Source: an uncultured Candidatus Bathyarchaeia archaeon
GTDB taxonomy: Archaea > Thermoproteota > Bathyarchaeia > Bathyarchaeales > Bathycorpusculaceae
Direction: 5' to 3'
Assembly (NCBI GenBank): GCA_964354115.1
Contig: CAYGYP010000001.1
Span: 1-30,737 of the forward strand
DNA length: 30,737 bases
Part shown: positions 446 through 27,098 of the stretch, in pieces
Layout: each line of letters opens with the position of its first letter
Position numbering within the stretch: position 1 is the stretch's first letter
Program-made: the position numbers and the translations under genes
The notes under the pieces: generated by a model
What the model saw: only the letters and a program-made list of their open reading frames with translations
What the model was told of the DNA's origin: nothing
The model's database searches: none

Positions 446-2221
446 ATGAAGGTTCCGCGACCTGAACATCCGCGCCCAGATTTCGAGAGGACGGACTGGG
501 TAAACCTTAACGGCGAATGGCAGTTCGAGATTGACGCAGGAAAAAGCGGGATTGAAAAGAGGTGGTCTGCTGGGAAAGAATTTTCAAAGACCATAATCGT
601 CCCTTTCCCCCCGGAGAGTTCTTTCTCAGGCGTCAACAGTAAGGACTTTATGGAGTCGGTGTGGTACAGACGTTACTTCGATATTCCTGCCAACTGGCTG
701 GACGAACGTGTTTTGCTGAATTTCGGAGCCGTCGACTACGAGGCAACCGTGTGGGTCAATGGTCAGCAAGTCTGTTTTCACAAGGGCGGATATACACCTT
801 TTACGTGCGACATAAGCAGCGTGGCAAAAGACAAAGACAACGAGCTCGTAGTCCATGCGAAGGACGAGTGCCGAAGCGGATTGCAACCAACAGGAAAACA
901 AAGCCATCGTTTACATTCCCACAGTTGCTTGTACACCCGTGTCACTGGCATCTGGCAGACTGTGTGGTTTGAACACGTCCCTCGACTCTACATCTCATCG
1001 TTCCGTTTGACTACTGACACATATAATGGAAGAGTCTATAATCAAGTCTTCGCTAAAGGTCAAATGGGGCAATACAACTTCTCCTTAACCGCATATGACG
1101 GAGACGAAAGTGTCGCAGAAGCCAACAGTTCATTTTTCACATCCCTAGCTGAAACAATGCTGGGTGTTCCGCATCCGAAGTTGTGGTCACCCGAAGACCC
1201 TCACCTATACGAGTTAAGGGTGAAACTGACTGACGAAAACGGAGCCGTCGACTCGGTCAAGTCCTATTTTGGCTTAAGAGATGCTCACTTGGACGGCAAT
1301 CAGTTTCTGCTTAACAATAAAACCCGTTTCCTCAGGACAGTCCTGGATCAAGGATACTACCCTGAAGGAATCTACACGGCACCTTCAGACGAAGCTCTTA
1401 GGCGCGACATAGAAATCTCCAAAGCCATGGGATTCGACGGCGCGAGACTTCACCAGAAGGTCTTCGACCCCCGTTTCCTTTACTGGGCTGACAAACTCGG
1501 ATACCTCGTGGTCAGCGAGTTCCCAGATTGGGGCGCTAACCTTCATAAAAGCCGTACGAGAGATGCGTTTCTCGACGAGTGGACTGAGGTCATAGGGCGT
1601 GATTTCAACCACCCATGCATCGTCATGTGGTTACCCTTCAACGAGAAGATATTCAACGTCGGAGATCCGCACGCGGACTTCATTAGAAGGGTAGTAAAAC
1701 TGACCAAGATTCTCGACCCGACGAGACCTATAGTTGATTCAAGCGGGTACACCCATATTGAGACAGACGTCTACGACCTTCATGACTACGAACAAAACGT
1801 AGAGGTCTTCAGAGACCATTATATAAAGCTCAAGGCTCTTTGCGAGAAATCTACAAAGAAGCCTGTGACGATTGATTGGCGGAAAACACAGCCAAATCTG
1901 CAAATGAACACACCTTACAGGGGTCAGCCCATCATTGTAAGCGAGTATGGCGGAATCTGGTGGCATCCTAATGACGCGGACAAGGGCAGTTGGGGGTACG
2001 GCGAAAGACCGAAGACGCTTGAGGAGCTTATTAGTAGATACGAATTTTTGACAAAGACCTTGCTTTCCATTCCTGAAATTGCGGGCTTCTGCTACACACA
2101 GCTCTATGATGTTGAACAGGAGACGAATGGATTATACACTTATGACAGAAGACCAAAGGTCAAGACAGAATCGATATACAGAATCAACAAGCAAAAAGCA
2201 ATGATCGAAAAAGCGACATAA
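446..2221 (+). CDS. Glycoside hydrolase family 2 (beta-galactosidase/beta-glucuronidase-like), 591 aa, no signal peptide
   Basis: PRP..R..W.NLNGEWQF start, LNFGAVDYEATVWVNG, HKGGYTPF, TGIWQTVW, PKLWSPEDPHLY, LDQGYYPEG, RLHQKV; acid/base motif WLPFNE and nucleophile motif VSEYGG. Confidence 0.92.
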   Translation: MKVPRPEHPRPDFERTDWVNLNGEWQFEIDAGKSGIEKRWSAGKEFSKTIIVPFPPESSFSGVNSKDFMESVWYRRYFDIPANWLDERVLLNFGAVDYEATVWVNGQQVCFHKGGYTPFTCDISSVAKDKDNELVVHAKDECRSGLQPTGKQSHRLHSHSCLYTRVTGIWQTVWFEHVPRLYISSFRLTTDTYNGRVYNQVFAKGQMGQYNFSLTAYDGDESVAEANSSFFTSLAETMLGVPHPKLWSPEDPHLYELRVKLTDENGAVDSVKSYFGLRDAHLDGNQFLLNNKTRFLRTVLDQGYYPEGIYTAPSDEALRRDIEISKAMGFDGARLHQKVFDPRFLYWADKLGYLVVSEFPDWGANLHKSRTRDAFLDEWTEVIGRDFNHPCIVMWLPFNEKIFNVGDPHADFIRRVVKLTKILDPTRPIVDSSGYTHIETDVYDLHDYEQNVEVFRDHYIKLKALCEKSTKKPVTIDWRKTQPNLQMNTPYRGQPIIVSEYGGIWWHPNDADKGSWGYGERPKTLEELISRYEFLTKTLLSIPEIAGFCYTQLYDVEQETNGLYTYDRRPKVKTESIYRINKQKAMIEKAT

Positions 2222-2372: not shown

Positions 2373-3491
2373 TCAGGAACCGTCGACAGTTCCATCGGAA
2401 GACGACGAGTTTGTCAAATATCCCCAAAGTGCGTAGTAAGCAGGCTTAGCGTGGTACGAAGAGTCGAAGATCAGGGCTGAGTCGTACCCATGGAAAAAAG
2501 ACGGGATCCACGAATATCGGTCGGTGAATCCCCACATCATAAACGCCTTGCAGTTGTCGGCATCGAGGCAAACCTCAAACAGTTCCTTGTATATGCACGC
2601 CTGCTCCGCAAGCTTCTCTTCAGTGACAGGAAGCTCCAACCTCACATCCAGTTCGGTTATGTGGACGTCAAGACCGAGATTCGATAAACGAGCCATGTTC
2701 TCGGCAACCTCCTGCGGACTCGGTGAGTTTTCCAGACTTACGTGCATCTGAAAACCCACGCCGTTTATGGGCACGCCTCTGTCTATGAGACCAGTGATTA
2801 AATCGTAGATTGCGTTTGACTTCTGGTTCATGCCTTCTCCTCCGTAATCATTGTAGAACAGGAGCGCATCCGGATCAGCCTCATGCGCCCAGCGGAACGC
2901 GAGGTCTATGTATTCTGGACCAATGTTGCGCAGCCAGACCGTGTCTCTCAGAGAACCATCGTCATTGACAGCTTCGTTGACAACGTCCCAAGCGTATATC
3001 CTTCCTCGGTATCGGCTCACGATGGTCGTAATATGGTCATGAAGGATGTCAACCCATTCTTCGCGAGAGAAACTTCCCGCGGTGATCCACCAAGGAAGCT
3101 GTTTGTGCCAAACGAGCGTGTGACCGCGTACTTTCATGTTGTGTGCTTCAGCAAACGAGACGATGGCATCAGCGTCGTCGAAGGAATAGAAGTTTTTTGC
3201 CGGATGTATCGACTCAAACTTCATGGCGTTCTCTGCTGTCAGTATGCTGAATTCGCGACTAAGGGTCTCCGCGTACAGAATCTCGTTCCTTAAGGGAGCT
3301 GTAGAAACCGCTGCTCCGATTAGAATGCCACGCGCGTCAGCGAGAGACCGTAAAGATGGCATGTTATCTTCCACATCTTCCCCTTGAGACTGTATTCCGT
3401 ATATACGTTGTAGAGTAATGAAGCACCCAAAAAATAATCCAATAACTAATACTATGAGACTCCCGATCAGCATGCCTTTTCTTAGGGACAA
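2373..3491 (-). CDS. Endo-1,4-beta-xylanase, glycoside hydrolase family 10, with N-terminal signal/membrane anchor, 372 aa
   Basis: GH10 motifs TAENAMKF, RGHTLVWH.Q.P.W, WDVVNEA (acid/base Glu), LFYNDY, GVGFQMH, HITELDV (nucleophile Glu), WGFTDRYSW. Hydrophobic N-terminus GMLIGSLIVLVIGLFFGCFITL. TTG start preceded by GGGAAAGG. Confidence 0.95.
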   Translation of the reverse strand: MSLRKGMLIGSLIVLVIGLFFGCFITLQRIYGIQSQGEDVEDNMPSLRSLADARGILIGAAVSTAPLRNEILYAETLSREFSILTAENAMKFESIHPAKNFYSFDDADAIVSFAEAHNMKVRGHTLVWHKQLPWWITAGSFSREEWVDILHDHITTIVSRYRGRIYAWDVVNEAVNDDGSLRDTVWLRNIGPEYIDLAFRWAHEADPDALLFYNDYGGEGMNQKSNAIYDLITGLIDRGVPINGVGFQMHVSLENSPSPQEVAENMARLSNLGLDVHITELDVRLELPVTEEKLAEQACIYKELFEVCLDADNCKAFMMWGFTDRYSWIPSFFHGYDSALIFDSSYHAKPAYYALWGYLTNSSSSDGTVDGS

Positions 3492-5112: not shown

Positions 5113-8100
5113 TCACTTGTACGGTTTGTTGATGTAATCTTGCCGCGTCTTCGGATTCAGGACGCGCCATTCGAAGGCTCGTTTCCTGAGGATGTCGACA
5201 AACATTGGAACAGCCTTCTTCCAATGGTTCAGTTCTCCCGACGTGCGTGTAATCGAAATGCTTAGGTGCCATTTGTCGTCTTCAGTCAATGCCATGATCA
5301 ATCTTACGTCTATGTGTATGCCTTTCGGGAAAGGCTTTATCTGTGCAGAGGAGGAAAAAACCTTCGCAGGCATCCCATTCAGGGAAACATCTTCGCACGT
5401 GACTTGCCTGCGTAACAGGAAGTCTCCGACTATCTCTGATGAAATGTTCTTCTCCATGAAATCTTTCATGAACATCAATATGCCTCGGGCGTCCTTTTCG
5501 TCTTCAGTGGCAAGCGGTATGGGGATTTCCCAGAGGTCGCCCTGGGCTTCCGTCGTGAGCTTCCACTTTCTGCTCAACGAGGGGGTCACTAACTTTGATG
5601 CCATAAGCAGCGGGTAAAGGGTAGAGGTTATAGTAATCAACGGGGACGAGATCAGAACCACGAAAACGTATGTTGATGTATAGTTTAGAGGAAAGTCGCT
5701 GGGGAAGAAACCGAATGTGCTCATGAGATTAATTGAGACTGTCCCGATTGCATACGCGATCACAGAAGACATGAACCCATACACTATGGCCTCTACAAGG
5801 AAAATCGTGGATATCTGAGTCGGATTCAGACCCAAAGTGCTAAGCGTGGCCATGTCTCTTTTTCGTTCATAAACGTTGGCGATCATCGTATTCAGGACGA
5901 TCAGAACACCGATTATGTAGGGCAGGAGAATAAACTGGAATCCAGACACAGATATGCTGCCCAGATAACTGTAAAATTCCGTTTCACTGGCCGATTCGAT
6001 ACCCGTGAAGATGACGATATTAAAGGCGTTAGTCAAGTCGATAGCGATGTCAGGCATCACTTGCGACGTTTTCTCGTTGAAGAAAATCGATATTGTAAAG
6101 AATTTACCACCAACGTTGAGTGATAGATCAAGAGGAAGTATCAAAACCGATCCCCCAGGAATACGACCAGCTTCCCCTTTCTGAGGATTATAAGGCATTA
6201 TTCCCCATCCATCCATTTCATTTTTCGAATTTGCTTGGTTACTGTCAAAAATGCCCACGATTTTAAGTGGATTACCTAAACAAATCACCGTGTCACCGAT
6301 GCCAACCTCTAAGGAATTAGCCATCTGGTCGGGAATGATGCAGCTTAAGTAATCATCTTCCTCGAACTGCCTCCCCTCCGTTAAAATTGAAAATATTTCT
6401 AGGTCGGCAGATTCCACTCCGAGAATGCCGTTGATGTAGTACCTCTTCGAAAGGTCTTCTGAATAAATTGGTTCACCCGTTCCCATATCCTTTGGGTACC
6501 ACCACACCCTCGGGGCGAAAACGCTTATACCAATGGTTTTGTCGTTGATGAACTGAATAAATTCTGGGTCAAGACTCTTGTAAGTGTAGTCTCGCATGTA
6601 CATTCCAGTATACGGTGGCGATGCCGCCCGAGTTGTTGCCCGTGCTCCCGGTGATGGCACAATCGTCGTGAACGCAATCAAGCTGACAACGATTATCACG
6701 AGCGAGAAAAAGGTCAAGATTGTCCGCAACCGGCGTTTCTTCATTTGAAGTATGCTGTAGGAAAAGACCGCCCCTATAAAATTCGATGTGCTCATTTGTT
6801 CAACGAGTTCGGAATGGGTCATTCTCTTGAGCTTGTTTGCAGCATCTTTAAGGATGCTACCTAGAAAGAAGTAGATTGGACTAATCAAGACGACCATAAC
6901 GAAGCCTATCAGGATAAAGTATACTGAGTATGCTATGTGAAGACCTGGGTGAAAGAAGTATAAGGCAGTGGCTAAAACCGTGAATGTAGTAACCATCACT
7001 ATAACCTTATTTCTCGGCGATCTGAATGAAAAAAGGATTTTTTCAAAAATGAAAGCGAACGGTAGCAGCATGACAAAATACGATACCGTAGTGTAGGCTA
7101 CGTCTTGGAGGATACCTTTCGTCATCCCATAGACTCTTTTCTCTAAACCCCAAGCCTCAAGTGAAGCGGAAATGGCTTGTGAGTAATTCTTTGCGTCAAT
7201 GGCATCAAAAGCCTTTTCTAAAGCCTCCCTGGCGTCTTTGTGGAATATTTCAGAGCCTGTGTAAAGGTTGTACTGCCGAGTAACGCTTAATCTATCTTCG
7301 TTTAACCAGAACAAATCCTCAGCAGATTGAAGAAGTGTGATACCCAATGAACTCCCCGTACTGACTCTATAGCCAGCCCCCTTAGGATTAGTTTCACTTG
7401 CGTTCAGGATTACTCCCAAAAAGTTATCTTTCTCATAGAAGCTAACTTTTACGGAGATCCCTTCTTTAGCGAAGATCATTGCGACTCGGTTTTCGACGCA
7501 ATAACCATAATGATTAGGCTCAACGTCGCCTACGGAATTAAATATCTCAACTTTTATTTGTCGTTCCTCAGAAACAGAAGATTGTCCAGAAGCAATTAAT
7601 GCGGATTCGACTTGCTGTATACTAAATAAATGTTGAGGTCCTACGCAGTCATACACGACTAGACTGCCGCACTCAAACACAATGAATTGCCGAGGAAAAC
7701 TGAGAGTACCAAGTTGTACATTGGGCATAATTTCACTGGTAGAGAACGTTCCTGCGCCGTACATGCCCAAATCCGTGGCGTACACAATGTTGCCTTCATC
7801 TTCTACGACATAAGCCTCAACACTCACAGGAGAGAGGGCCTTGATTCCAGGCACAACGAAAACACCATTCTCATCCGCCTTAACGATAGCCCAGCTTCTA
7901 TATTGAAGAAGTCCAACGAAATTCACATAAACTAAGGCATTTGGAACTGGTTTATACCCCCCGGTGTTGATATCGTACTCAGCAATCTCACCTACCAATG
8001 CGCCCAATTGCATACCATTCTCAAATGTAGTTCGTGCTTCCTGAATGATGGGTTCCAGGCTGAGGCTGTAAAGGGAGCAGAAAATGTATTCAAGCTGTGG

Positions 8101-9639
8101 TCTTAAGTTCTCAATGTTTGCAGCAAATTCCGAATAATAATCAAGGGGAGAATTCCAATTGTGGAACGAAGCGTAACAGGTATGCATGACGACGTTGGGA
8201 ATCGTGTTCACTGAAAAGACATCAGTCTCATGAATGAATGGTACAGGCAAATACGGATCGCCAGGAACAGTTGCGTAGGTTCCATAGGTCATTAGAAAAC
8301 TCAAATTCCCCTCAACTGTAAAGGTTCTGCCATACTTGCTTTCCCAAACGGTGTTCAAATTTTGGAGAGTGTCGAGGATAAAGAAACTCTGCAGGTTGCT
8401 TAACACGGTGTCCATTGACATCCCTCGCCAGTCTTTGTCATAAAAGTGAGTCCTGTAGAACAACCCCAAGGAATTGATCTCTGTTGATAAGTCAATGCCA
8501 ACAGCAATCTTCAGGGTCTCAGCGATAAATCGGATCGAATCATGCGGGTTAGCATAGGCCTCAGAATAGTGCGTTGTTCCTATAGATTGTTCATACGCTG
8601 CAGACAACTTCATGATGAAGTCTCTGGCTCCGGCAAGGTTTTGGCCATGACCAGAAAAGGCCACGAAGACAATTGTCTGTTTAGATGGGTTCTCATCGAA
8701 GAATTTTACCAGTTCCAGCAAAGTCGATATGCCAGCAGCCTCGTTGGCTCCATAGGCCAGGCTGGGAACCACTGAAATGGAGTCGTAATAAGCGTTGATT
8801 AGTATTGTGCTATTTCTATACTCCGATCCATATTTGAAACCGATGATGTTTTTTCCTAGAAGATTCTCATATTTCATGCTTGACTTAAGTTGAACTTTGG
8901 CTTCTGGGTCGTTCGTGATCAAGTCCCAGAGAGGTTCGATGTCTTCAGTCTTTACGTAGACTCTGGGGAAATTTAGAGGGACGCTGCTCAGATATTTTTG
9001 TTCCGCCTCCTCCGTCGTCGTCATCACTGACTCAATGAAAATGACTGCTTTCGCGCCAAGTGACACTGCCTTCAGCCAATTGTCTCGGCTGTTAAAATCC
9101 ATTAACACGATGTTGCCGTTAACGTTTTTTCCGTCAAAGTCGACATCGTTTCCGCAACCCACGTAGATAATGCTACCCTCCACACCCTCTATTGGAGTGG
9201 GCGACGTGTTTACTGAATTTGGGTACATCGGGTAAGCTTCTACTTCGCTACCACCTGGAAGGACGATCTTGGCGCCAAAATCGACTGGCACAGTAACGTT
9301 GAAGCTGTCAACATTCACATCGGAAAGGTATTGTCTAAAATATTCCTCTATGTAATTCGCAGCTGCATTACATCCGGGATATCCAGTAACTCGCGAATTT
9401 AAACTGGAAAAAAATTGGACATGCTGATCTATCGCTGTCAAATTCACGAGATCTAATATCTGGTCATACGAAAGAGTGCCGTTTTCGTTAATGTCGTTTG
9501 ATGAAAGTATTGAAGAGGATACGTTATGAACGCCATTAATCTGGAAGATTAATGAGGCGAACAACAAAACCGCAATGAAGAGGACAATCGTCTTTCGCGT
9601 CAACGGCGCTCTTCCTCTTAGTCTGTCCGCGTCATTCAT
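5113..9639 (-). CDS. Large membrane protein: N-terminal anchor, PA domain, degenerate M28 peptidase-like ectodomain, carboxypeptidase-regulatory-like beta domain and MacB/FtsX-type permease, 1508 aa
   Basis: TM at about aa 17-36; IDQHVQFFSSLNSRVTGYPG (M28 N-terminal helix with R.TG..G); PA-like GSIIYVGCG..GNIVLMD..AVSLGAKAVIF; M28-like NAYYDS, GANEAAG, FVAFSGHGQ..AGA, VGIDLS; VPNALVYV..ADENGVFVVPG. FtsX signatures are RRLRTILTFFSLVI and VYERKRDMATLSTLGLNPTQISTIFLVEAIVYG. Roughly 8 hydrophobic segments by eye; RBS GAGGAAAGG before the ATG. Confidence 0.8.
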   Translation of the reverse strand: MNDADRLRGRAPLTRKTIVLFIAVLLFASLIFQINGVHNVSSSILSSNDINENGTLSYDQILDLVNLTAIDQHVQFFSSLNSRVTGYPGCNAAANYIEEYFRQYLSDVNVDSFNVTVPVDFGAKIVLPGGSEVEAYPMYPNSVNTSPTPIEGVEGSIIYVGCGNDVDFDGKNVNGNIVLMDFNSRDNWLKAVSLGAKAVIFIESVMTTTEEAEQKYLSSVPLNFPRVYVKTEDIEPLWDLITNDPEAKVQLKSSMKYENLLGKNIIGFKYGSEYRNSTILINAYYDSISVVPSLAYGANEAAGISTLLELVKFFDENPSKQTIVFVAFSGHGQNLAGARDFIMKLSAAYEQSIGTTHYSEAYANPHDSIRFIAETLKIAVGIDLSTEINSLGLFYRTHFYDKDWRGMSMDTVLSNLQSFFILDTLQNLNTVWESKYGRTFTVEGNLSFLMTYGTYATVPGDPYLPVPFIHETDVFSVNTIPNVVMHTCYASFHNWNSPLDYYSEFAANIENLRPQLEYIFCSLYSLSLEPIIQEARTTFENGMQLGALVGEIAEYDINTGGYKPVPNALVYVNFVGLLQYRSWAIVKADENGVFVVPGIKALSPVSVEAYVVEDEGNIVYATDLGMYGAGTFSTSEIMPNVQLGTLSFPRQFIVFECGSLVVYDCVGPQHLFSIQQVESALIASGQSSVSEERQIKVEIFNSVGDVEPNHYGYCVENRVAMIFAKEGISVKVSFYEKDNFLGVILNASETNPKGAGYRVSTGSSLGITLLQSAEDLFWLNEDRLSVTRQYNLYTGSEIFHKDAREALEKAFDAIDAKNYSQAISASLEAWGLEKRVYGMTKGILQDVAYTTVSYFVMLLPFAFIFEKILFSFRSPRNKVIVMVTTFTVLATALYFFHPGLHIAYSVYFILIGFVMVVLISPIYFFLGSILKDAANKLKRMTHSELVEQMSTSNFIGAVFSYSILQMKKRRLRTILTFFSLVIIVVSLIAFTTIVPSPGARATTRAASPPYTGMYMRDYTYKSLDPEFIQFINDKTIGISVFAPRVWWYPKDMGTGEPIYSEDLSKRYYINGILGVESADLEIFSILTEGRQFEEDDYLSCIIPDQMANSLEVGIGDTVICLGNPLKIVGIFDSNQANSKNEMDGWGIMPYNPQKGEAGRIPGGSVLILPLDLSLNVGGKFFTISIFFNEKTSQVMPDIAIDLTNAFNIVIFTGIESASETEFYSYLGSISVSGFQFILLPYIIGVLIVLNTMIANVYERKRDMATLSTLGLNPTQISTIFLVEAIVYGFMSSVIAYAIGTVSINLMSTFGFFPSDFPLNYTSTYVFVVLISSPLITITSTLYPLLMASKLVTPSLSRKWKLTTEAQGDLWEIPIPLATEDEKDARGILMFMKDFMEKNISSEIVGDFLLRRQVTCEDVSLNGMPAKVFSSSAQIKPFPKGIHIDVRLIMALTEDDKWHLSISITRTSGELNHWKKAVPMFVDILRKRAFEWRVLNPKTRQDYINKPYK

Positions 9640-9815
9640 AACCTTTCCTCATTTTGCTAATGTATCATAATATGGGAAGGTATATAAATTATGGTAATAC
9701 TTCCATAAAAAGGTAATTTGTATAATGAATATACTTATTTACTTTCTTTTTCCAAATTACCTCTGAAGTTAAAATTTAAATATCCAACTGTCTCCTAATA
9801 ATGGAATGAAATAAA

Positions 9816-11669
9816 TTGGCTCAAACTGATTTCAAAGAAGGCTTCACGGTCAAGTCGCTTCTGGGCATCCTTTATTCAATTCTAATTTTCACGCCTGCGA
9901 TGATTTTCACAAGTTTAGTTTCTGGATCGACTGTTCTCTTCGCTGGTTATGTTGTAATGTTATTGTTCGTGGAGCTAGGGCATTATGCTGGTTCGCCTTT
10001 GAAAAAGCAGGAGCTTACGACGATTTTCATTATTTCGGGGGTGACGGGTCCCTTTCTGTTGCTGTTGCAGGCTCTTTACTTCCGATCTCTTTCGCCCATT
10101 ACTTCATCGTTCACTTGGAATGGGGTGGTTCTCCCACAGGTAATTCCGGACTTCTTTTCTCCAGGACCATCTTCTCTTTCCATTATTAACAGGACGTTCT
10201 TTAATCCCGACTGGATAGCGTCCATCATCGTAGTCGTCCTTTCGAACCTTTTCGCCGTTGGTATGAGTATCCCTTTGGGCATGCTCAATTACCAGATATA
10301 TGTTGTTGAGGAGAAACTGGCATTTCCGAGAGAGATTATCGCTGCGGAAACTATTACGACACTGTCGGATAGAAAGCCGGACAAACTCCTTTTGTTCAGT
10401 TTGTGCGCTCTGATAAGTAGTGGATACAATGTTTTCTGCTATCTACTACCTTTCGCTACCAACGGCGGCATTGTACCTATTTCGATGCCGTGGATTGATG
10501 GAAACCTGACGATTGAAAAATTTTTACAGGGCGCATCTTTTGGTATCGGTACTGATTTAATTTATCTTGCATTAGGGTTGATGCTTCCTCTCAAGATGGT
10601 TGTGTCGGTTTTCATTGGTTCCTTCGCTTTGTATTTCGTCGGAAACCCCCTGCTGGTGCGTTTTGACATTTTCAAGGAATGGAGATATGGGATGGATCTT
10701 TCCACAGTGTTCCAAAGGTCCACTCTCTCGTTCTGGGCTTTTCTTCAGATCGGTTTGACAGCTGCAGCTGCGATAACACCCTTGTTGATACATCCCAGCT
10801 TGATCACTAAGCCGATTAAAAGCCTCCTAAGGATTACGGACGCGTCTAAAAAGAAAGGCATTCTTTCACTCCATTCGACGTTAATACTGTATTTTGCTTT
10901 TGCCTTTGCTTACCTTGCTCTATGGGGGTACATTGTTCCAGATTTCCCCCTCACAATCTCAATAATTCTTGTAGTCGTCTGGCCACTCATAGGTTCTCTC
11001 ATCGCCAATAGAGGTTTGGGCGAATCTGGAATGATCATTTCTGTTCCCTACGTCAACGAAGTTGCATTCACGCTTAATGGTGTCCAAAACATCAATACGT
11101 GGTTCGTCCCCACTATTGGACAACCCTTGGGGGTCGATTGGTGCGCAAACTTCAAGATCTGCGATATGACGGAGACAAAGTTTTCCAGTATATTAAAGGC
11201 CTTTGTCATCGCCTTGCCCATTGCGTGGATAGCGAATTTCTTTTTCGTTCAGGCGTTCTGGTCCTTGGCACCTATCCCGTCCAGCATTTATCCTGCGGTG
11301 GACATTTACTGGCAAATTAACGTTCTCAACCGTTGTCTGTGGATATCGGGCAGTGTCTCGACCCAAACCACTCTCATCATGGGATCATTTATTATTGGAA
11401 TGGCACTTTCAGCAGCCTCAATTATGCTTAATCTTCCTATTTCGATGATGGGTATAGCGATCGGGTCTTTGAATCCTCTTCCAGTCTGCTTGACTTTTCT
11501 TATAGGTGGAATTGTGGGTTGGTTTGTTGCCAGAAGAAGAGGTAAAGAATGGTGGGGTCAAAATCAAGCAGTAATTGTTGGTGGTCTCATGGTAGGCGAA
11601 GCAACCACCATCGCGGTGTCAGTGGCATTAGGAATGATCGTGAAATCTGCATGGGTTTCACCATTCTAG
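9816..11669 (+). CDS. Polytopic membrane protein, OPT (oligopeptide transporter) superfamily-like, 617 aa
   Basis: Almost entirely hydrophobic helices; EG.T.KSLLG N-terminus, EEKLAFP motif, GL..P..V.S.FIGS, and a C-terminal GGLMVGE resembling OPT-family ..G.I.GE. TTG start. Confidence 0.65.
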   Translation: MAQTDFKEGFTVKSLLGILYSILIFTPAMIFTSLVSGSTVLFAGYVVMLLFVELGHYAGSPLKKQELTTIFIISGVTGPFLLLLQALYFRSLSPITSSFTWNGVVLPQVIPDFFSPGPSSLSIINRTFFNPDWIASIIVVVLSNLFAVGMSIPLGMLNYQIYVVEEKLAFPREIIAAETITTLSDRKPDKLLLFSLCALISSGYNVFCYLLPFATNGGIVPISMPWIDGNLTIEKFLQGASFGIGTDLIYLALGLMLPLKMVVSVFIGSFALYFVGNPLLVRFDIFKEWRYGMDLSTVFQRSTLSFWAFLQIGLTAAAAITPLLIHPSLITKPIKSLLRITDASKKKGILSLHSTLILYFAFAFAYLALWGYIVPDFPLTISIILVVVWPLIGSLIANRGLGESGMIISVPYVNEVAFTLNGVQNINTWFVPTIGQPLGVDWCANFKICDMTETKFSSILKAFVIALPIAWIANFFFVQAFWSLAPIPSSIYPAVDIYWQINVLNRCLWISGSVSTQTTLIMGSFIIGMALSAASIMLNLPISMMGIAIGSLNPLPVCLTFLIGGIVGWFVARRRGKEWWGQNQAVIVGGLMVGEATTIAVSVALGMIVKSAWVSPF

Positions 11670-11881
11670 AAACTTGATGGTTCAGAAGTGAGTAATTCAC
11701 GTCTTTAAAAACGTGGATTATCTCTTCCCACAAAATGCGTCATTTTAGAAAGGGGCATGAACCTAATTATTATGATTCATGATAGGAATTATCATAATAT
11801 AAACTAAAAAAACTTCTCTTCACGCCTTTATTGATTTTCTACATGGTTGAAAAAAACTACAGGTTTGTCAAAAAAATAGAG

Positions 11882-12811
11882 TTATGGGTTTCTTTTGGAG
11901 GCATTGTGCCATACCTTCCAGAAGGTATTCACGTAATTTGTGCACATCATTCTGTTGTATTTACACCAGAATCCGAATCTTACTTTTTTGCCCTCGCCGT
12001 ATTCATATCTATTCACTTCCATGAGGTGTTCCGAATCAAAAACATCTATGTTTTGAATGCCATTCCGCATCAAAACTTCGTTGTCGACGACTTTGACTTC
12101 GGCTCCCAGTTCTTCGTACCCTCGTATTCTGTGTTGGGGAGTTTTTGTGGAGAACAGGTAGTAAAGCTTGACTCCTTGAGCGATGGCGTATTCAAAGGTG
12201 TAAATTATTTCAGGGAACTCGTCATGAGTCTGTGTTACTTGGGTTGTACCTATGATCTCGTTTTCAGTCAGCCTAATCATTTGAATTAATAATCTACGGT
12301 ACTCCTCGTTGGTCGAAAATACTCCGGATACGGATTTCTTCAGTTTACTCGGATCTGTCTTGTAGACAACATCATTTTTGTAATTGTCCAGCTTAGGCAA
12401 AACGTCGTATAGAGCTGTGAGCAGGGAATATGGATAAGACATGTTCGGTATAGGATTCGACTCTCGGTTGAAGAAGTATATTTTTGGATATCCTTCTAAG
12501 ACTTGTATGAAGCCTTTCTCATTAAGCTGGTTAAGAATGCTCCAGACTTTAACACCAACATTGAGTCCTCTATCGTTCTTAACGCCTATCTTTTTTATTT
12601 CATCAAGTATGTTACTGGCTGTGTTTCCTATTTGGCCTGCCACGAGCTCTCGGGAGAGTAACGCTTTTAGAACCATTTTTTCTCGATTTGAAAGTGAGAT
12701 TAAATCAATTGCTTTATAGATTTCGCCGATTTCATTTGATTTTATGAATTCAATAACCTTTTTTTTGGATATCTCTGAATTAAATAAGAAGGAACTACTG
12801 TTCTTCTTCAT
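11882..12811 (-). CDS. TrmB-like transcriptional regulator (winged HTH plus PLD-like effector domain), 309 aa
   Basis: LSNREKMVLKALL...VWSILNQLNEKGFIQVLEGYPKIYF matches the TrmB wHTH pattern (L...E.KV..ALL...VY..L..L..KG.V....G.P..Y). The C-terminal LIQMIRLTENEII..AIAQGVKLYYL..GAEVKV..IDVFDSEH resembles the TrmB effector domain. RBS GAGGT. Confidence 0.65.
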   Translation of the reverse strand: MKKNSSSFLFNSEISKKKVIEFIKSNEIGEIYKAIDLISLSNREKMVLKALLSRELVAGQIGNTASNILDEIKKIGVKNDRGLNVGVKVWSILNQLNEKGFIQVLEGYPKIYFFNRESNPIPNMSYPYSLLTALYDVLPKLDNYKNDVVYKTDPSKLKKSVSGVFSTNEEYRRLLIQMIRLTENEIIGTTQVTQTHDEFPEIIYTFEYAIAQGVKLYYLFSTKTPQHRIRGYEELGAEVKVVDNEVLMRNGIQNIDVFDSEHLMEVNRYEYGEGKKVRFGFWCKYNRMMCTNYVNTFWKVWHNASKRNP

Positions 12812-12955
12812 TTACCTCATCACTCGCTTGCTTCATTTTTTTATGATAATATATATAAATTTTGGTAAAACTTCCTTTTAATGTTAGTATCTCCATAATC
12901 AATATATATGTTTTACCATGATATGTTTTGCCAGTAATAAAAATGAGGGAAAAAA

Positions 12956-14950
12956 ATGACAACAGACGATATGAAAAAAAAGACAAACGATCAATTTCCT
13001 TTGAAAGGCTTAATCCTAGGGCTAATATTCGCATCAATAACATTGCTGATGACAACCATACAAGGTCCGGGTGGTCTAAGACTGTACGATTGGGAATCTC
13101 CACTTTGGTCAGGAGCATTGACCTTCACATATGCGATGGCTTTCATTTTCCCTATCGTCGTGATACACCTAATGATAACCAAAGGCAAGTTCTCCCTTAG
13201 TTCCACAGATCTCACAGTGATGTGGATTCTGATTGGTACAGCTATTCCTTTAGGGTGGGTACTCATGCGACCAAGCCAGATGGCATTGGTTTTCTGGACT
13301 GGCGAACTAAATCCAGATATGCTTTCAGTCATACCTGAATTCATGAGAATTCCTAAGGGAGTTCTTGACGAAATCTACACACCTGGTGGAGTTCCATGGG
13401 CAAGTTGGGCTCCTGTTGCTTTCTTCAATTGGCTTCTGGTCGTTGCTTGGCAGCTATGTATGTTTTTTGTGGTCGTCTTCTTCCAAGAGCAGTGGGTCGA
13501 AAAAGAACACTTACCATTCCCCCTAGCAACACCTGGAGTGAAAATGATTGAATACGCCACAAAAGCTGACAAAAAAGAAAATGGTGCTATGAACATCTTT
13601 AAGGAAAAGTTACTCTGGATAGGATTCTTAATTGCATTCCTGCTATATTTCCTCGACATCATTCACATGTTCATACCATCGATAACTTCCTTCGCCAATC
13701 TCTACTGGAACGTAGGTTCATGGTATGGAGGAACGAATGTTAATGGACTATTACGACTAGAGTTGCCTCCGACATTATTGGTTCTCAATCTCTTAATGCC
13801 AACAGATGTTCTACTGACAGCATGGGTCTGGAATCTCATTGCATGGACTATTTATCCCAGCATCCTGATCAACAATGGAATTATACCCAATGTCCTAGCT
13901 GGTGGCGAAGGTGCTGCGCGAGACGCTCTGATATATTGGGTCGGTTCGACTCGTTTGGCGTTAAAAGGCGAAATGGTTCTAATGTCTGTAGCAATCTTCA
14001 CTTTCATACTAAACTACAAATACATCGCTGGAAAAATTAAGCAGGCTTTCTCGGGTTCAGTAAAAGAATCCTTCATTTCACCAAGGATATCAATCATCGG
14101 TACAATCGTATGCGCACTTATCGTGCTGAGCATGTACTTTGTCATTGGCATAGAAGCTTGGGTCGCCATTGTTTCTATTGCTTACTCTTTCCTTGCTCAA
14201 ATCGGATATTCACGAATGAGGACTGAGTACTGGCAAGTCGGAGGAACGATGTCCACATGGATATCATGCAACATTGGAGCTCAGATATGTTGGGGAGGAG
14301 AGGCAGTCCAGCAACCATGGTTCTATCATACAGCCACAGGCGCATGGATAAACAATCTCAATTGGACCACACACCCTGACGCAATGGGTCTCCAACACAC
14401 AGCACTTGATGGATTCGCTATCGCAGATCGTGTGGGAGCGAACAAGAAACATATAGCCTTCGCATGGATAATTGGGGCACTCTTACTACCTGCCCTTGCC
14501 ATAGTTTACAGGCTTGGAATGGCCTACGGTTACCAACAGGGATTAAACTTCCCATTTGACAACACTACTTATGGACACGGAGCCTATGTTTGGGGAGGAG
14601 GCGTAATGCCCTTCTGGACTACCACCCAAGATGCCGTAGTTGACGTAAGCTTTGGCCTTGTAGTCGCTGGTGTAATGATGTTCATGAAGGCTAACTTCGC
14701 ATGGTTCCCATTCAACGTACTGGGCATGATAATCGGAGGCGAAATGAATCCGTGGTGGATGTTGCTGTCGTTCATTTCAGCATGGCTGGTGAAGACTCTG
14801 ATACTTAGGTTCGCTGGCGTACGTTTCTTTGAAAACAAGATAATACCGTTCGTCGTCGGATGGATCGCAGGCTGGGTAGTCTGTAAACTACTAATAATGT
14901 TCCCACTTGCCTACTTTGTCATAGGAATCGGGAATATGCCAGCGGCATAG
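12956..14950 (+). CDS. Polytopic membrane protein, OPT-superfamily-related (DUF6785/DUF6784-like), 664 aa
   Basis: Highly hydrophobic; PW..WAP..F.W, F.EQW.EKEHLPFPLA, and a C-terminal WFPFNVLG...SFISAWLVKTLILRFAG.....P..VGWIAG, which I recall from DUF6785/6784 proteins (unverified). RBS GAGGG. Confidence 0.6.
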   Translation: MTTDDMKKKTNDQFPLKGLILGLIFASITLLMTTIQGPGGLRLYDWESPLWSGALTFTYAMAFIFPIVVIHLMITKGKFSLSSTDLTVMWILIGTAIPLGWVLMRPSQMALVFWTGELNPDMLSVIPEFMRIPKGVLDEIYTPGGVPWASWAPVAFFNWLLVVAWQLCMFFVVVFFQEQWVEKEHLPFPLATPGVKMIEYATKADKKENGAMNIFKEKLLWIGFLIAFLLYFLDIIHMFIPSITSFANLYWNVGSWYGGTNVNGLLRLELPPTLLVLNLLMPTDVLLTAWVWNLIAWTIYPSILINNGIIPNVLAGGEGAARDALIYWVGSTRLALKGEMVLMSVAIFTFILNYKYIAGKIKQAFSGSVKESFISPRISIIGTIVCALIVLSMYFVIGIEAWVAIVSIAYSFLAQIGYSRMRTEYWQVGGTMSTWISCNIGAQICWGGEAVQQPWFYHTATGAWINNLNWTTHPDAMGLQHTALDGFAIADRVGANKKHIAFAWIIGALLLPALAIVYRLGMAYGYQQGLNFPFDNTTYGHGAYVWGGGVMPFWTTTQDAVVDVSFGLVVAGVMMFMKANFAWFPFNVLGMIIGGEMNPWWMLLSFISAWLVKTLILRFAGVRFFENKIIPFVVGWIAGWVVCKLLIMFPLAYFVIGIGNMPAA

Positions 14951-15134: not shown

Positions 15135-17441
15135 TCAGGTTTTATTAAAGGAACGTGTTCTAGTAAGCATCACCTCTTCACTTTGTGGATCCACGACAGC
15201 AACAAGCAATATTTCATTAGGTTCTATACGAGTCTTCTCGGTTCTCGGCAAGACGGTCTCTTCAAAGACCACTGAGTATGTGCCATCTCGCACTGAGTAT
15301 ACGTCGTATTTGCCTAGGTTAAGGTCGTGGGGTGAAATCTCCCATTCAAACACAACTGGTTCGTCTGAAATGTTTACGAAGACGTAGCCAATGGAATTTT
15401 TTGATGACTTCCAGGCGCTGTTGAGGACGGATGATTCCGTCAGTGTCCTAGGCGGTTCTTCGTGGTTGAAGCTAACGTAGTTTTCGGAGAAATTTAGGTA
15501 ATTGATTTTCATTTTTGGCGCATTGATCTGAGGATGCTTCACCATTCTTCCTAAAACCAAATATTCTTTTGCATACGTGCTCTCCGCTAAGGATGTTTTC
15601 CTATAAAATTCCACAAGTTCTGGTAAGAGTCCCAACTTTCTGAAAAAAAGTCCCCCGCTTTGAATTTTTCCCAGGATGAAGCTTCTCGCCAAAGCTCTCA
15701 TGTAGTAGGGTACCATCTCCTTGTCAGGATTCAAGAAGACGTTTTCATGGCCAAACGCTGCAACACAGTCGTGGTAGACGTAAGTGAAAAGCGGAATGGT
15801 TTCTACGTTAGAGCCGTATCTGTCAATCAACCTCGTGTAATGCCCAAATAGCTCCGGCATATTGTCCCTTGAAAGGTAGCCATCAACTGAACCGATGTAG
15901 AATTCGCAAGGCTCTTCGATGCTCATGATAAAATTAGGGTTTCTCTTTTTGCACTCTTTTCTTATTTCAAGGAGCATCTTAAGCCAGCTCTTACCTATCC
16001 AATTCCCATACCCGAGAGGGTGACCATGATTCTCATTGTAGCAAGGGTTTATGTCAGGAAACTCGTCGATCTGAACCATGTCTAAACCTAACCTCAGACA
16101 CTCCAGCGCGTTGTTCAGAACGGTTTCTCTCCAAAATTGTGTGTACGGGCACATTCTGGCTCCAGGACCTACGGTACCCTGAATTCTGACAGTGGGTTTT
16201 CGGTCCTCTGTCATTGAGACGTACTGTTTTCCATGTTCCTCAAACCTCTTTGAATCGTCGAAGAAGACTCGCTTAGAAGCTATCCTCCAGACTGTCCCTG
16301 AGATGTACGCGGACCCATGACTGCCGCATTCCCTTATGTACCTCATGGCCTGTAAAAATTTCTGTCCACCTTCTCTGGGAGGAAAGTATCTGGGTCCAGT
16401 CCAAGATCCTGAATGTTCCCACGCGAAGATGCACGCGTCAAAGTCAAGGTTTAGTTTTTTGTTCAAGTCTTTGACGATCACCGAAATTTCGTCCATCGAC
16501 ATTACGAGATTGTTTAAGAAGGAGTAGTTTTCGAACATGAGTATGGGCGTCGGCTTTTTGAACCACTCCGGAGTATCCCTTTCGGGCAGTTTCTCTGTGC
16601 ACCATTTCTGGCGTATTGCCCATTTTCTGTAAATATCAGCTGCTGTATACCAGTCTCCTTGAAAGAAGCCTATGACGATGGGGTATTCTAGAGAGAAATC
16701 GTTACCCTTCTCCTTTGGAAGGTAGTGACAGCAAATAATCTCCAAGTATTCCTCGTTAACACGCTTTAGCGAAAGGCATTTGACTTTTCCTTCAGCGTCT
16801 TCCGTTGAAAAGAACAATCCTCCCTTCTTGCTGTAAAGGGCTATGAACTGCATTGACATTTCAGCGTTGGGGTACACATAAGGGAGGAATTCTTCGCCAT
16901 TCTCTAGCGCAAGAAACGGATTTTTCAGAAGCACGCCGCCGCAAAAGGGAATAGCGACAAAGTCGTCATCATCCTTTTCCCCAGTTTTTGTAAAACCCGA
17001 AATTAGGGGGAATTCAACCTTATTTATTATTAGGTTGCCATCATTTTCGATATTCATTTTCCAGGTCGAAAGATTGGAATCATCTGTTACAAAAACTGTC
17101 ATCTTTACCTTTATGTCGTACTCTCCAAAACCAGAATTTCTCAGCGTTAACCTTATCCCTTCGCTTGTTCTTTCCAAATCGTGGGCACACTCAACTGCGT
17201 CAAGATTGCTTACGCACTTTACACTCTCCACGCCTTCGGTTTTGAACCAAATTCGGAAGATTAGGCAGGGAGATCCCTTATTTTTCCTGAAATCGTCTCC
17301 GGATGACTTCTGTGTAATAGAGAAAATTCCGTTTTTACCATTGTCAAAAGCATATTCTAGGAAGGCATTGCCTAGATAAACATGTTCGTCGTCTTCTTTA
17401 TAGTACACCTTACTTTCGTGTGTATTTTCGTCTTCACTCAA
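15135..17441 (-). CDS. Putative glycoside hydrolase of unassigned family (DUF6259-like TIM barrel with N-terminal beta-sandwich), cytoplasmic, 768 aa
   Basis: N-terminal beta-rich domain (YLGNAFLEYAFD..GIFSI); YVYP..MSMQF.A.Y; GDWYTAADIYRKWA..Q.W; WE..G.W..P.YFPPREG; MCPYT.FW; QIDEF; PCY...HGHP.GYG.W; SIEEPCEFYI; PLFTYVYHD. No signal peptide; TTG start. Confidence 0.55.
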   Translation of the reverse strand: MSEDENTHESKVYYKEDDEHVYLGNAFLEYAFDNGKNGIFSITQKSSGDDFRKNKGSPCLIFRIWFKTEGVESVKCVSNLDAVECAHDLERTSEGIRLTLRNSGFGEYDIKVKMTVFVTDDSNLSTWKMNIENDGNLIINKVEFPLISGFTKTGEKDDDDFVAIPFCGGVLLKNPFLALENGEEFLPYVYPNAEMSMQFIALYSKKGGLFFSTEDAEGKVKCLSLKRVNEEYLEIICCHYLPKEKGNDFSLEYPIVIGFFQGDWYTAADIYRKWAIRQKWCTEKLPERDTPEWFKKPTPILMFENYSFLNNLVMSMDEISVIVKDLNKKLNLDFDACIFAWEHSGSWTGPRYFPPREGGQKFLQAMRYIRECGSHGSAYISGTVWRIASKRVFFDDSKRFEEHGKQYVSMTEDRKPTVRIQGTVGPGARMCPYTQFWRETVLNNALECLRLGLDMVQIDEFPDINPCYNENHGHPLGYGNWIGKSWLKMLLEIRKECKKRNPNFIMSIEEPCEFYIGSVDGYLSRDNMPELFGHYTRLIDRYGSNVETIPLFTYVYHDCVAAFGHENVFLNPDKEMVPYYMRALARSFILGKIQSGGLFFRKLGLLPELVEFYRKTSLAESTYAKEYLVLGRMVKHPQINAPKMKINYLNFSENYVSFNHEEPPRTLTESSVLNSAWKSSKNSIGYVFVNISDEPVVFEWEISPHDLNLGKYDVYSVRDGTYSVVFEETVLPRTEKTRIEPNEILLVAVVDPQSEEVMLTRTRSFNKT

Positions 17442-20675: not shown

Positions 20676-22190
20676 TTGGGATACGTGGCTATTGGAGTTG
20701 ACATTGGCACAACTGGGACCAAAGCGGTTGCGGTTGACGTGGACGGAGAAGTGAAAGCGAGGTCTTTCTACGAGTACGCTGTTCATAATCCAAAGCCATT
20801 GTGGTTTGAGCAGTCTCCTCAGGACATTTGGTTGGCGACTGTCAGCTCCATCAGGGAAATAATGAACCGCCCCCAGATCAGTTCCCAAAAGGTCGTCGCT
20901 GTATGCTTCTCTGCGCAGGGAGGAACTTTGATACCCGTTGACAACCAAGGAAACTCCATTCGGTCAGCCATAACGTGGCTTGATAAAAGAGCAGTTCCGC
21001 AGTGCTCCTCATTGACCAGAATCGTCGGTCGCAAGCAAATAATAGATGCTTGCGGCAGAGAACCCATACCCGCCTATATGGAGCCGAAAATTTTGTGGTT
21101 GAAAGAAAACGAGCCAGAAACCTTCAGGCGGGCTAAGAAATTCCTTCAGGTCCAAGATTTTGTCTTAATGCGGCTCATAGGTAAATGCGTAACAGACTTG
21201 TCGAACACATCGTTCTTAGAGTCAATCATTTTTGATGCAAAGAGGATGGGGTGGTCTCACGACGTTCTGAGTCTCATTGGTTTATCTGAAGACAGGCTCC
21301 CCGAAATAGGAGAAACAGGCGACCTCGTAGGCGAATTAGCAAAAGGGACGGAAACCGAGACGAAACTGCCATCTGGCACCCCGATTGTTTTAGGAGGGCA
21401 CGACCAATGCATGGCTGCCGTAGGCGCTGGAGCCATTGAGCCTGGAATCGCTCTCCTCTCCGCTGGCACATCTTGGGCTCTCGTGACCTCGCTTGATAGT
21501 CCAATTCCGAATTCTGCTGAGTTTATCTGTTATAACCATGCAGTCCGCGGGAAGTGGATGTTGCTGACCTCTTCCCCGTGCGGCGTGGCTTTAAGATGGT
21601 TTAGGGACCAGCTGGGGGAAGATGAGAAGGCAAAAGCGCGTTTACTCAACAAAGACCCGTATGACCTGCTGATTGAAAAAGCTGCGGACGTGAAATCAGG
21701 TTCAGATGGGCTTGTTTTTCTACCGTTTTTAGCCGGGGCATTGGACGATTACGAAGCGAAAGGATGCTTTGTTGGATTGACTTTAGCCCACACCAAGGGA
21801 CATTTGGTCAGAGCTGTGCTTGAGGGAAATGCGATGGAGGTTATCCGCATGACCGAGATTTTTGGGAAGGTGGGAAAGGGTATTCGGGAGTACAGGTTCA
21901 TAGGAGGAGCATCGAAATCCGCCTTGTGGCAACAAATAATTGCTGACACCACACAAAAGGCGGTAATCACATTAGAAGACCGAGAGGCGGCTTCTCTTGG
22001 TGCTGCAATAATTGGGGGCGCAAGTGTAGGCATGTTCAAGGACATAAATGACGGAATAGGAAAAGCGGTCTCAATACATGAAAGAACCGAACCAAAAAAA
22101 GAAAACAAAGGAATCTATGACAAAAAAATGCAGGCTTATAGAAAAATTTGTAAGCTGCTGAAACCTTACTGGAAGACGCTCTCAACTTGA
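20676..22190 (+). CDS. FGGY family carbohydrate kinase (xylulokinase/ribulokinase-like), 504 aa
   Basis: IGVDIGTTGTKA, FSAQG, ITWLDKRA, PKILWLKENEPE, GGHDQ, SAGTS, FLPFLAG, RAVLEG, GGASKS.LWQQIIAD. Confidence 0.9.
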   Translation: MGYVAIGVDIGTTGTKAVAVDVDGEVKARSFYEYAVHNPKPLWFEQSPQDIWLATVSSIREIMNRPQISSQKVVAVCFSAQGGTLIPVDNQGNSIRSAITWLDKRAVPQCSSLTRIVGRKQIIDACGREPIPAYMEPKILWLKENEPETFRRAKKFLQVQDFVLMRLIGKCVTDLSNTSFLESIIFDAKRMGWSHDVLSLIGLSEDRLPEIGETGDLVGELAKGTETETKLPSGTPIVLGGHDQCMAAVGAGAIEPGIALLSAGTSWALVTSLDSPIPNSAEFICYNHAVRGKWMLLTSSPCGVALRWFRDQLGEDEKAKARLLNKDPYDLLIEKAADVKSGSDGLVFLPFLAGALDDYEAKGCFVGLTLAHTKGHLVRAVLEGNAMEVIRMTEIFGKVGKGIREYRFIGGASKSALWQQIIADTTQKAVITLEDREAASLGAAIIGGASVGMFKDINDGIGKAVSIHERTEPKKENKGIYDKKMQAYRKICKLLKPYWKTLST

Positions 22191-26189: not shown

Positions 26190-26211
26190 ATCTTTCCGCC
26201 TGTCCTTTCAA

Positions 26212-27084: not shown

Positions 27085-27098
27085 TAGCAGAAAACATC

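Follow-up and report, generated by a model that had tools for sequence, protein, structure and literature searches.

The locus described here raises the question of what a cassette of four genes, three of them coding for large membrane proteins, does in the middle of an archaeal island for the breakdown of xylan and pentoses. The window, by which we mean the whole stretch of DNA analysed, is an entire contig of 30.7 kb (CAYGYP010000001.1) belonging to G000, a fragmentary metagenome-assembled genome (MAG; 409 contigs, 85% complete) of an uncultured Bathyarchaeia archaeon. In what follows, G designates a genome, L a locus, P a protein and f a family within the Bathyarchaeia.

An earlier reading made from the letters of the DNA only (hereafter the sequence-only reading) had described the cassette as two divergent pairs, flanked by genes for glycoside hydrolases (GH) of families GH2 and GH10, a DUF6259-like protein and sugar catabolic enzymes. 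Open reading frame (ORF) listing together with Pfam and NCBIfam scans confirmed the four ORFs, their arrangement and these flanks, and no component of an ATP-binding cassette (ABC), major facilitator superfamily (MFS) or phosphotransferase (PTS) system was detected in the 30.7 kb, as that reading had also noted. The first pair comprises a gene on the minus strand (5113–9639) for a fusion protein of 1508 amino acids, with an N-terminal transmembrane (TM) segment, a predicted PA/M28 pseudo-peptidase head, a beta-rich domain, a helical stalk, three TM segments, a MacB/FtsX module and a cytoplasmic C-terminal domain, and a gene on the plus strand (9816–11669) for OPT-like 1, a member of an OPT subfamily with 617 amino acids and about 14–16 TM segments that was encountered only alongside the fusion protein in the genomes searched. 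The second pair encodes a soluble protein of 309 amino acids, possibly a TrmB-like winged-helix regulator (11882–12811, minus strand), and OPT-like 2 (12956–14950, plus strand), which has 664 amino acids, contains DUF6785 and DUF6784 and is a paralogue of OPT-like 1 over its full length.

Our best explanation, held at slightly less than even confidence, is that the cassette represents a conserved and so far uncharacterised envelope module for the capture and uptake of extracellular polymer fragments, here derived from xylan. Three parts make up the module, namely a membrane protein of the type VII ABC kind with a dead PA/M28 head, a protein of the OPT superfamily and, usually, a paralogous DUF6785/DUF6784 protein, and we infer that these form a complex working in the inward direction. 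An anchored GH10 would release xylo- or arabino-oligosaccharides outside the cell and the dead M28 head would serve as the receptor for the released fragments. The OPT-like proteins would provide the translocation path and the FtsX/MacB module would transmit conformational work, supplied in most relatives by dedicated MacB-type ATPases rather than by an ion gradient alone. Inside the cell, the GH2, DUF6259 and pentose enzymes would then break down the imported oligosaccharides.

Conservation of the module

Close relatives of the cassette (79–92% identity), which originate from sediment, wetland and peat metagenomes, retain the whole island and were not counted as independent evidence. Distant homologues of the fusion protein (20–33% identity, about 60 clusters) have likewise retained their partners. 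At L013 and L014 the genes follow the order DUF6785, fusion, OPT and overlap or nearly touch, L015 has the order fusion, OPT, and the same core is found at L016, L068, L069 and the locus of P0056. The module is also present in bacteria, including Lentisphaerota, and the similar trios that the sequence-only reading had mentioned for Thermoproteota and some bacteria were found in both.

Five Bathyarchaeia genomes of the same order carry 21 full-length fusion genes, corresponding to 3–7 per genome of 1.4–1.7 Mb. Among the 19 of these loci that were inspected, an OPT-like-1-family gene lies directly adjacent in 17 and a DUF6785 gene within 5 kb in 15, three of the loci being cut by contig ends. 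Stop and start codons of the fusion and OPT-like-1-family genes frequently overlap. The OPT-like-1 family (E≤1e-40) was detected in 23 of 401 Bathyarchaeia genomes, every one of which also encodes a full-length fusion protein (23/23), and was not found in the other 378. DUF6785 is a looser partner that occurs alone too. The window conforms to this pattern, as its fusion gene has a gene of the OPT-like-1 family for direct neighbour and one for a DUF6785 protein not far off. The three membrane families thus stand side by side across distant lineages with about 20–30% identity, often with overlapping codons, and the trio is no chance neighbourhood; the rarity of co-occurrence that would have told against a joint system was clearly not what the genome survey gave.

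That the four genes are unrelated neighbours, each with the independent function of its automatic label, is in our view very improbable. The Joint Genome Institute (JGI) annotation does call some homologues 'ABC-type antimicrobial peptide transport system permease', and the divergent arrangement in the window makes no single operon. Against this stand the strict phyletic co-occurrence, the near-universal adjacency, the translational coupling in relatives and a 22-nt promoter motif common to both divergent regions (see below).

Each of the three membrane genes is present once in G000. Searches of other genomes of the window's own family, f1, brought up neither a fusion gene nor an OPT-like-1 gene, and no DUF6785 gene came up in the 24 f1 genomes searched for it, six of the window's genus included. 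In this lineage the cassette is accordingly an accessory island. A recent acquisition from f11, the multi-copy family, was considered and rejected, as the nearest f11 homologues are only about 30–33% identical. Contigs of G000 of at least 8 kb have a GC content of 0.345–0.627 (SD 0.055), among which the window contig, with 0.451, is no outlier. This spread suggests a mixed bin, so whole-genome statements on G000 are weak, and the assignment of the window contig to the bin is uncertain.

On one contig of G208 (C6), three trios lie within 37 kb. Around one trio of this genome (L056, G208:C6:66000–86000), five paralogous proteins of 470–490 amino acids with no Pfam match are encoded. A recurrent soluble protein of about 210–245 amino acids, also with no Pfam match, is encoded inside or beside six archaeal module copies (L054:4692–5384, L055:706–1440, L057:18929–19642, L060:11999–12694, L065:15381–16073 and L067:2399–3031) and may be a fourth component. 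No relatedness was detectable between this protein of some 230 amino acids and the 309-amino-acid protein of the window.

Architecture of the fusion protein

Pfam matches of the fusion protein were to FtsX (4.5e-15), MacB_PCD (2.5e-6), Peptidase_M28 (1.7e-7, for the first 78 profile positions only) and PA (1e-4). Hydropathy indicated an N-in topology with an Arg-rich cytoplasmic N-terminus, a TM segment at residues 18–36 and an ectodomain of ~810 residues (about 37–846). This is followed by a membrane half consisting of three TM segments (847–926), a basic cytoplasmic loop, a TM segment at 976–994, a periplasmic core domain, three TM segments between 1234 and 1351 and a cytoplasmic tail of ~155 residues. 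On the minus strand, the PA and M28-fold head (residues about 55–534) is encoded at 8038–9477, the three-TM bundle between the ectodomain and the FtsX module (847–926) at 6862–7101, the MacB/LolCE-type module of one TM segment, periplasmic core domain and three TM segments (970–1352; defined by Pfam, Foldseek and invariant columns) at 5584–6732, and the C-terminal domain of about 155 amino acids at 5116–5583.

The ectodomain as modelled with AlphaFold (pLDDT 87, pTM 0.89) shows the M28 alpha/beta fold, into which a PA domain is inserted. The model is close to Aeromonas aminopeptidase (VIA Z 28.8, rmsd 2.4 Å) and also matches the PA-containing M28 aminopeptidases BSAP and PaAP, as well as GCPII, the transferrin receptor and GPAA1. 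At the M28 catalytic and metal-binding positions, the ligand His is replaced by Tyr284, the Glu-Glu pair by His331-Gly332 and the bridging Asp by Asn299. In an alignment of 56 full-length fusion homologues, window protein included, the ligand-His column holds His in seven sequences and otherwise Tyr, Asn or another residue. Of the two Glu-Glu columns, the first has His or Gln, with Glu in 2/56, and the second Ala or Gly, and the column of the bridging Asp has Asp in 7/56 and mostly Arg or Glu. Judged by these columns the head lacks the two-zinc site and the catalytic Glu and is a pseudo-peptidase across the family, so that the dead M28 fold proposed for the single protein in the window holds family-wide.

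For the membrane half, both Pfam and the structural model (pLDDT 83) gave the four-TM FtsX module, in which an extracytoplasmic core domain separates TM1 from TM2. Foldseek matched it to MacB, LolCDE, HrtB, YtrF and FtsX (E 3e-14 to 1e-7), with LolC and LolE among the matches. The residues of the coupling-helix motif (R1259, E1262, G1270, F1280 and E1283) are invariant in the 56 homologues, including the window protein, and a short helix at 1260–1268 of the model, between the second and third TM segments of the module, carries R1259 and E1262. In MacB-type proteins the helix at this position touches the ATPase. The C-terminal domain, with a helix-grip-like fold, is conserved in both archaeal and bacterial members and gave weak Foldseek matches to Bet v 1, START and PYL proteins (E about 1e-2). 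Its candidacy as a stand-in for the ATPase in archaea was rejected, the domain being equally conserved in ATPase-bearing bacterial members.

All characterised MacB/FtsX systems, whose folds are matched here, act outward or in the envelope, and the module might accordingly be no importer at all. It would then be a type VII mechanotransmission machine working outside the membrane, which could extract, export or present a surface molecule, hold or activate secreted hydrolases in the way FtsEX acts on EnvC, or sense, the OPT-like proteins being exporters or scaffolds. A dead-enzyme partner recalls FtsEX-EnvC, and BceAB offers a parallel for sensing. Among the neighbours of the module are many secreted enzymes that bear PKD or beta-propeller domains, the weakly START/Bet v 1-like cytoplasmic tail has a fold of the lipid-binding type, and GPAA1, one of the structural matches of the head, belongs as a dead M28 protein to a complex that handles glycolipids. 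We consider such a machine rather unlikely, as characterised OPT-superfamily proteins are importers, the island needs an importer for which it offers no other candidate, and the bacterial loci showed no partner of the membrane-fusion or outer-membrane type.

The OPT-like proteins

OPT-like 1 matched the Pfam family OPT (PF03169) over residues 130–599 with E 6.9e-9 and 35.3 bits, above the cut-off of 25.8. OPT-like 2 was assigned to DUF6785 and DUF6784 by Pfam, with no Pfam match to OPT. Comparison of the two family profiles using hhalign aligned 575 columns (99.7%, E 6e-26), and a motif E-x-LPFP-x-A is common to both families. By this homology the two are genuine paralogues within the OPT superfamily, and the earlier claim of two OPT-like proteins stands, for the first through the Pfam threshold and for the second through profile–profile homology. 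A PDB sequence search with the profiles of both families gave no match.

An exhaustive profile search (E≤1e-30) placed 424 clusters at 50% identity in the OPT-like-1 family, which is thus of considerable size. Some members (810–1080 amino acids) contain a beta-propeller insert of ~300 amino acids at profile position about 524. Inserts were recognised as Reg_prop in P0125, P0154, P0176 and P0202 and as WD40 in P0168, and P0212 has a PDZ domain. The inserted domain could be a built-in ligand-binding domain, and propellers and PDZ domains are compatible with binding of either glycans or peptides. A complex prediction confined to the TM segments of the fusion protein (841–996 and 1229–1352) and OPT-like 1 scored 0.05, relative to a mark of 0.34, a result that bears on binding in neither direction.

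ATPases and energy source

The sequence-only reading had the OPT-like pair driven by an ion gradient. Energisation purely of this kind is doubtful and was not supported: MacB-type ATPases are embedded in four of the five more distant loci scored for ATPases, an orphan pair of the same clade is present in archaea and the coupling-helix motif is invariant. The bacterial loci L016, L069 and that of P0056 encode, in this order, a hypothetical protein, a PqqD-like protein, an FtsX protein (about 500 amino acids), an ABC ATPase, the fusion protein, an OPT-like protein and another ABC ATPase, and L068 is a shorter version with one FtsX protein and one ATPase. No ATPase was found within 10 kb at the archaeal module loci, nor in the window. 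The five multi-copy genomes contain two MacB-type ATPase genes each. These orphan ATPases (L070:5707–6468, plus strand, and 6997–7818, minus strand; L071:4899–5645, plus, and 8913–9647, minus) have no adjacent permease in G140 and G034, where the surroundings are annotated, the neighbours being Nre, GFO, AFOR and TldD/PmbA. Identity is 66% between the two ATPases and about 90% across genera; with the locus-embedded bacterial ATPases they share 52–65% identity and form one supported clade.

Searches at E≤1e-80 located the ATPase clade in the fusion-bearing families f11 (20/25), f5 (2/2) and f12 (1/1), and also in families with a shorter relative (about 950 amino acids) from the same FtsX clade, f24 (62/71), f31 (9/10) and f21 (6/6), where it lies directly beside that gene. 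In f1 it was seen in 2/103, with borderline scores. No full fusion occurs in f24, f31 and f21; there, pairs of relatives of ~930–1000 amino acids, made up of stalk, three TM segments and MacB module, flank a single ATPase of the same clade (for example, G177:C3:40599–45943, G254:C27:2875–8224 and G068:C9:37508–39819), an arrangement that resembles a LolCDE-like heterodimer. On the simplest reading, this clade of FtsX proteins would normally work with this clade of ATPases, and in each multi-copy genome the copies would share one pair, much as sugar ABC systems can have an ATPase in common.

In the organism of the window the complex might do without an ATPase, with the FtsX part as scaffold or receptor and the OPT-like pair importing by means of an ion gradient, an account that overlaps with our best explanation and that we judge to be fairly improbable. 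It would fit the lack of ATPase genes in the window and near the related archaeal loci, and characterised OPT carriers are proton-coupled. In G000, moreover, no orthologue of the partner ATPase clade was detected at E≤1e-80, and the only MacB-type ATPase found shows 41–49% identity and lies next to its own FtsX gene. Absence of the ATPase cannot be concluded from G000 because the MAG is incomplete, fragmented and of mixed composition (contig GC 0.35–0.63). The coupling-helix motif is invariant in the window protein as well, and elsewhere one ATPase clade accompanies the FtsX clade. At L074 (G000:C260:1206–3669), the one MacB-type ATPase gene found in G000 overlaps the start of an ORF of 562 amino acids that contains two FtsX stretches and runs to the contig end. 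The fusion profile did not detect this system, which is a separate one of type VII.

Carbohydrate context and substrate

The GH10 xylanase of the island (2373–3491, minus strand) has an N-terminal membrane anchor and is predicted to be extracellular, whereas the GH2 glycosidase (446–2221, plus strand) is devoid of a signal peptide and predicted to be cytoplasmic, and the DUF6259 protein, a putative glycosidase of 768 amino acids encoded convergently with OPT-like 2 (15135–17441, minus strand), also has no signal peptide. Oligosaccharides made outside would therefore need import to reach GH2 and the DUF6259 protein. Elsewhere, GH or polysaccharide lyase (PL) genes are located beside or inside about half of the module loci. 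L015 has a heparinase II/III-like gene, a GHL-type gene and a GH4 gene in line with or next to the module; GH116, GH109 and AXE1 genes are found at L016, a GHL10 gene at the P0056 locus and GH127 at L051. At L062 and L064 the neighbours are pectate lyases of family PL1 that contain PKD and beta-propeller domains, and GH42 and GH10 lie by the module at L060 and L067. Of these genes, the heparinase II/III-like, GH116, GH127, PL1 and GH42 ones stand directly in line with it. The carbohydrate association is thus recurrent and sometimes at the level of the operon.

Several points weigh against glycan uptake. About half of the module loci, such as L014, L017, L068 and L069, encode no clear carbohydrate-active enzyme (CAZyme). 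In the five genomes, 2/2 PL1, 4/6 GH42 and 1/7 GH127 genes (7/15 strong copies) are near family genes, counts that are biased because these three families were picked from the module neighbourhoods themselves. Of the families chosen independently, GH10 is near the trio in 1/2 cases and DUF6259 in 0/4, amounting to 1/6. Characterised OPT proteins carry peptides or metal chelates, and we know of no type VII ABC system that imports anything. The M28 and PA folds, the PDZ inserts and the PqqD-like neighbours point towards peptides, and G000 has yielded no orthologue of the partner ATPase, as described above. On account of the unbiased GH10 and DUF6259 result, we grade the enrichment as moderate and not as established; the carbohydrate context put forward in the sequence-only reading is thus moderately supported, with GH and PL genes at about half of the loci and weak enrichment of the independently chosen families.

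The same module might instead handle peptides or glycopeptides, the head binding peptide termini and handing its ligand to OPT-type oligopeptide carriers, which we think unlikely. Such a role would suit the peptide-fermenting lifestyle proposed for Bathyarchaeia. It agrees with the Pfam match to OPT, with the closeness of the M28/PA fold to aminopeptidases and GCPII, with the PDZ insert in one member and with the PqqD-like, peptide-binding type of gene in bacterial loci; creatininase, amidohydrolase and aminotransferase genes are neighbours at several loci. Most prokaryotic OPT subclusters have also been predicted to be peptide carriers (PMC3061005). The window, however, contains no peptidase or peptide-catabolic gene and is otherwise devoted to xylan and pentoses, GH or PL genes are in line with the module at several independent loci, and the head has lost its catalytic and zinc residues, which usually hold peptide termini in place. 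The uptake of glycan fragments is favoured over other roles by the lack of any other transporter in the island, by the localisation of the glycosidases, by the in-line GH and PL genes, by the occurrence of 3–7 copies per genome with differing neighbours, by the Reg_prop beta-propeller inserts of some family members and by the earlier context-based prediction for OPT subcluster 4C (see below).

Regulator, promoter motif and neighbouring genes

The protein of 309 amino acids was observed only in the cassettes of this lineage, for example at L007 and L075. It resembles Pfam TrmB over a 25-residue stretch (E 0.005, 17.1 bits, below the cut-off of 25.6) and NCBIfam TrmBL1 (E 0.005), and its language-model neighbours carry TrmB (scores 0.88–0.90). 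There was no Pfam match to the sugar-binding domain Regulator_TrmB (PF11495) and no PDB sequence match. Its identity as a TrmB protein is weak; of the TrmB-like regulator proposed earlier, the faint resemblance persists, whereas the Pfam threshold was not reached and the sugar-binding domain was not detected.

A 22-nt AT-rich motif (TATAAATTWTGGTAAWACTTCC) has two matches in the window, where none is expected, one in each divergent intergenic region. The first copy (TATAAATTATGGTAATACTTCC; 9683–9704, plus strand) lies between the fusion and OPT-like-1 genes, 44 nt from the fusion start codon, and the second (TATAAATTTTGGTAAAACTTCC; 12854–12875, plus strand) between the regulator and OPT-like-2 genes, 43 nt from the regulator start codon. 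The motif contains a TATA-like element and its core is retained in the ~90%-identical relatives L007–L010. We interpret it as a duplicated bidirectional promoter or operator that would co-regulate the four genes. Downstream of OPT-like 1 as well as of the regulator gene lies a palindrome-rich AT stretch (ATTATGATTCATGATAGGAATTATCATAATA; 11770–11810) that could act as a terminator or operator.

The remaining flank genes encode a UxaC-like amidohydrolase, an aminotransferase, a GFO/IDH/MocA protein, an FGGY kinase, an AraA-like isomerase, two sugar-phosphate TIM barrels and a split transketolase. A tight operon of a GFO/IDH/MocA gene and two AP_endonuc_2 TIM-barrel genes occupies 25125–27890 and adjoins the split transketolase (28130–29913); GFO and AP_endonuc_2 genes of a similar kind adjoin the module at L014. 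In some ~90%-identical relatives the FGGY kinase is called at 370 amino acids (L007/L008:17949–19061), compared with about 500 in the window (20676–22190), and the shorter call may reflect a truncation or frameshift in those assemblies. An Rfam scan of the window gave no match.

Comparison with known systems

The fusion protein shares with type VII ABC systems (MacB, LolCDE, FtsEX, HrtBA, YtrEF and BceAB) the succession of TM segment, periplasmic core domain and three TM segments, the coupling-helix motif and, in relatives, genes for MacB/LolD-type ATPases alongside. It differs from them in about 960 extra N-terminal residues, in the cytoplasmic tail of about 155 amino acids, in its constant pairing with OPT-superfamily proteins across the genomes searched and in the absence of an ATPase in cis in archaea. 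Likeness to the OPT/Yellow-Stripe-like transporters (TC 2.A.67) lies in the score of OPT-like 1 above the Pfam gathering threshold and in the homology that extends to DUF6785/DUF6784; in contrast to those transporters, the OPT-like proteins here are very divergent, are encoded as a pair and are tied to an FtsX protein.

For OPT subcluster 4C (Bacteroides, Parabacteroides), in which OPT genes are co-transcribed with an endo-xylanase gene, uptake of xylo-oligosaccharides was predicted from gene context (Gomolplitinant and Saier, 2011; PMC3061005). The same gene-context logic applies to the window. In subcluster 4C, the OPT genes stand singly and lack a partner of the FtsX or pseudo-peptidase kind; we found no test of this prediction in the literature. 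The transferrin receptor, nicastrin and GPAA1 (GPI transamidase) likewise have a PA/M28 fold deprived of its catalytic metal site as a binding module on a membrane protein, although they are eukaryotic, belong to unrelated partner machinery and have no sequence kinship to the head beyond the fold.

An analogy may further be drawn with the SusC/SusD polysaccharide utilisation loci, which likewise come in many paralogues per genome, placed next to varying glycan-active enzymes, although the proteins are unrelated and no outer membrane plays a part in archaea. One orphan pair of ATPases could serve all copies, in the manner of shared ATPases such as MsiK. A more specific and more doubtful form of our best explanation is a hybrid importer of a previously undescribed kind, in which an ATP-driven MacB-type mechanotransmitter with a dead-peptidase receptor would load glycan fragments into paired OPT-fold channels, with 3–7 copies per genome sharing the single orphan ATPase pair, as a Bathyarchaeia counterpart of the bacterial polysaccharide utilisation loci.

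Literature searches for DUF6785, DUF6784, PF20581, or FtsX together with OPT, M28 or Bathyarchaeia, gave no description of the module, the parts of which belong to known superfamilies and the combination of which is undescribed. New here are the strict phyletic co-occurrence in Bathyarchaeia, the expansion to several copies per genome, the orphan pair of ATPases with its link to the FtsX clade, and the limits of the CAZyme enrichment.

Significance

Bathyarchaeia are among the most abundant archaea of anoxic sediments, and their uptake of polymer fragments is largely unknown. The module occupies several per cent of some genomes of 1.4–1.7 Mb and is the only transport candidate in the xylan and pentose island of the window. 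If it is truly an uptake machine, it would join type VII ABC and OPT proteins, which are not known to work together, would give OPT-fold proteins a role in carbohydrate uptake and would correct the labels 'antimicrobial peptide permease' and 'oligopeptide transporter'. Should it prove to be no importer, it would still be a large, conserved and unexplained machine of the cell envelope.

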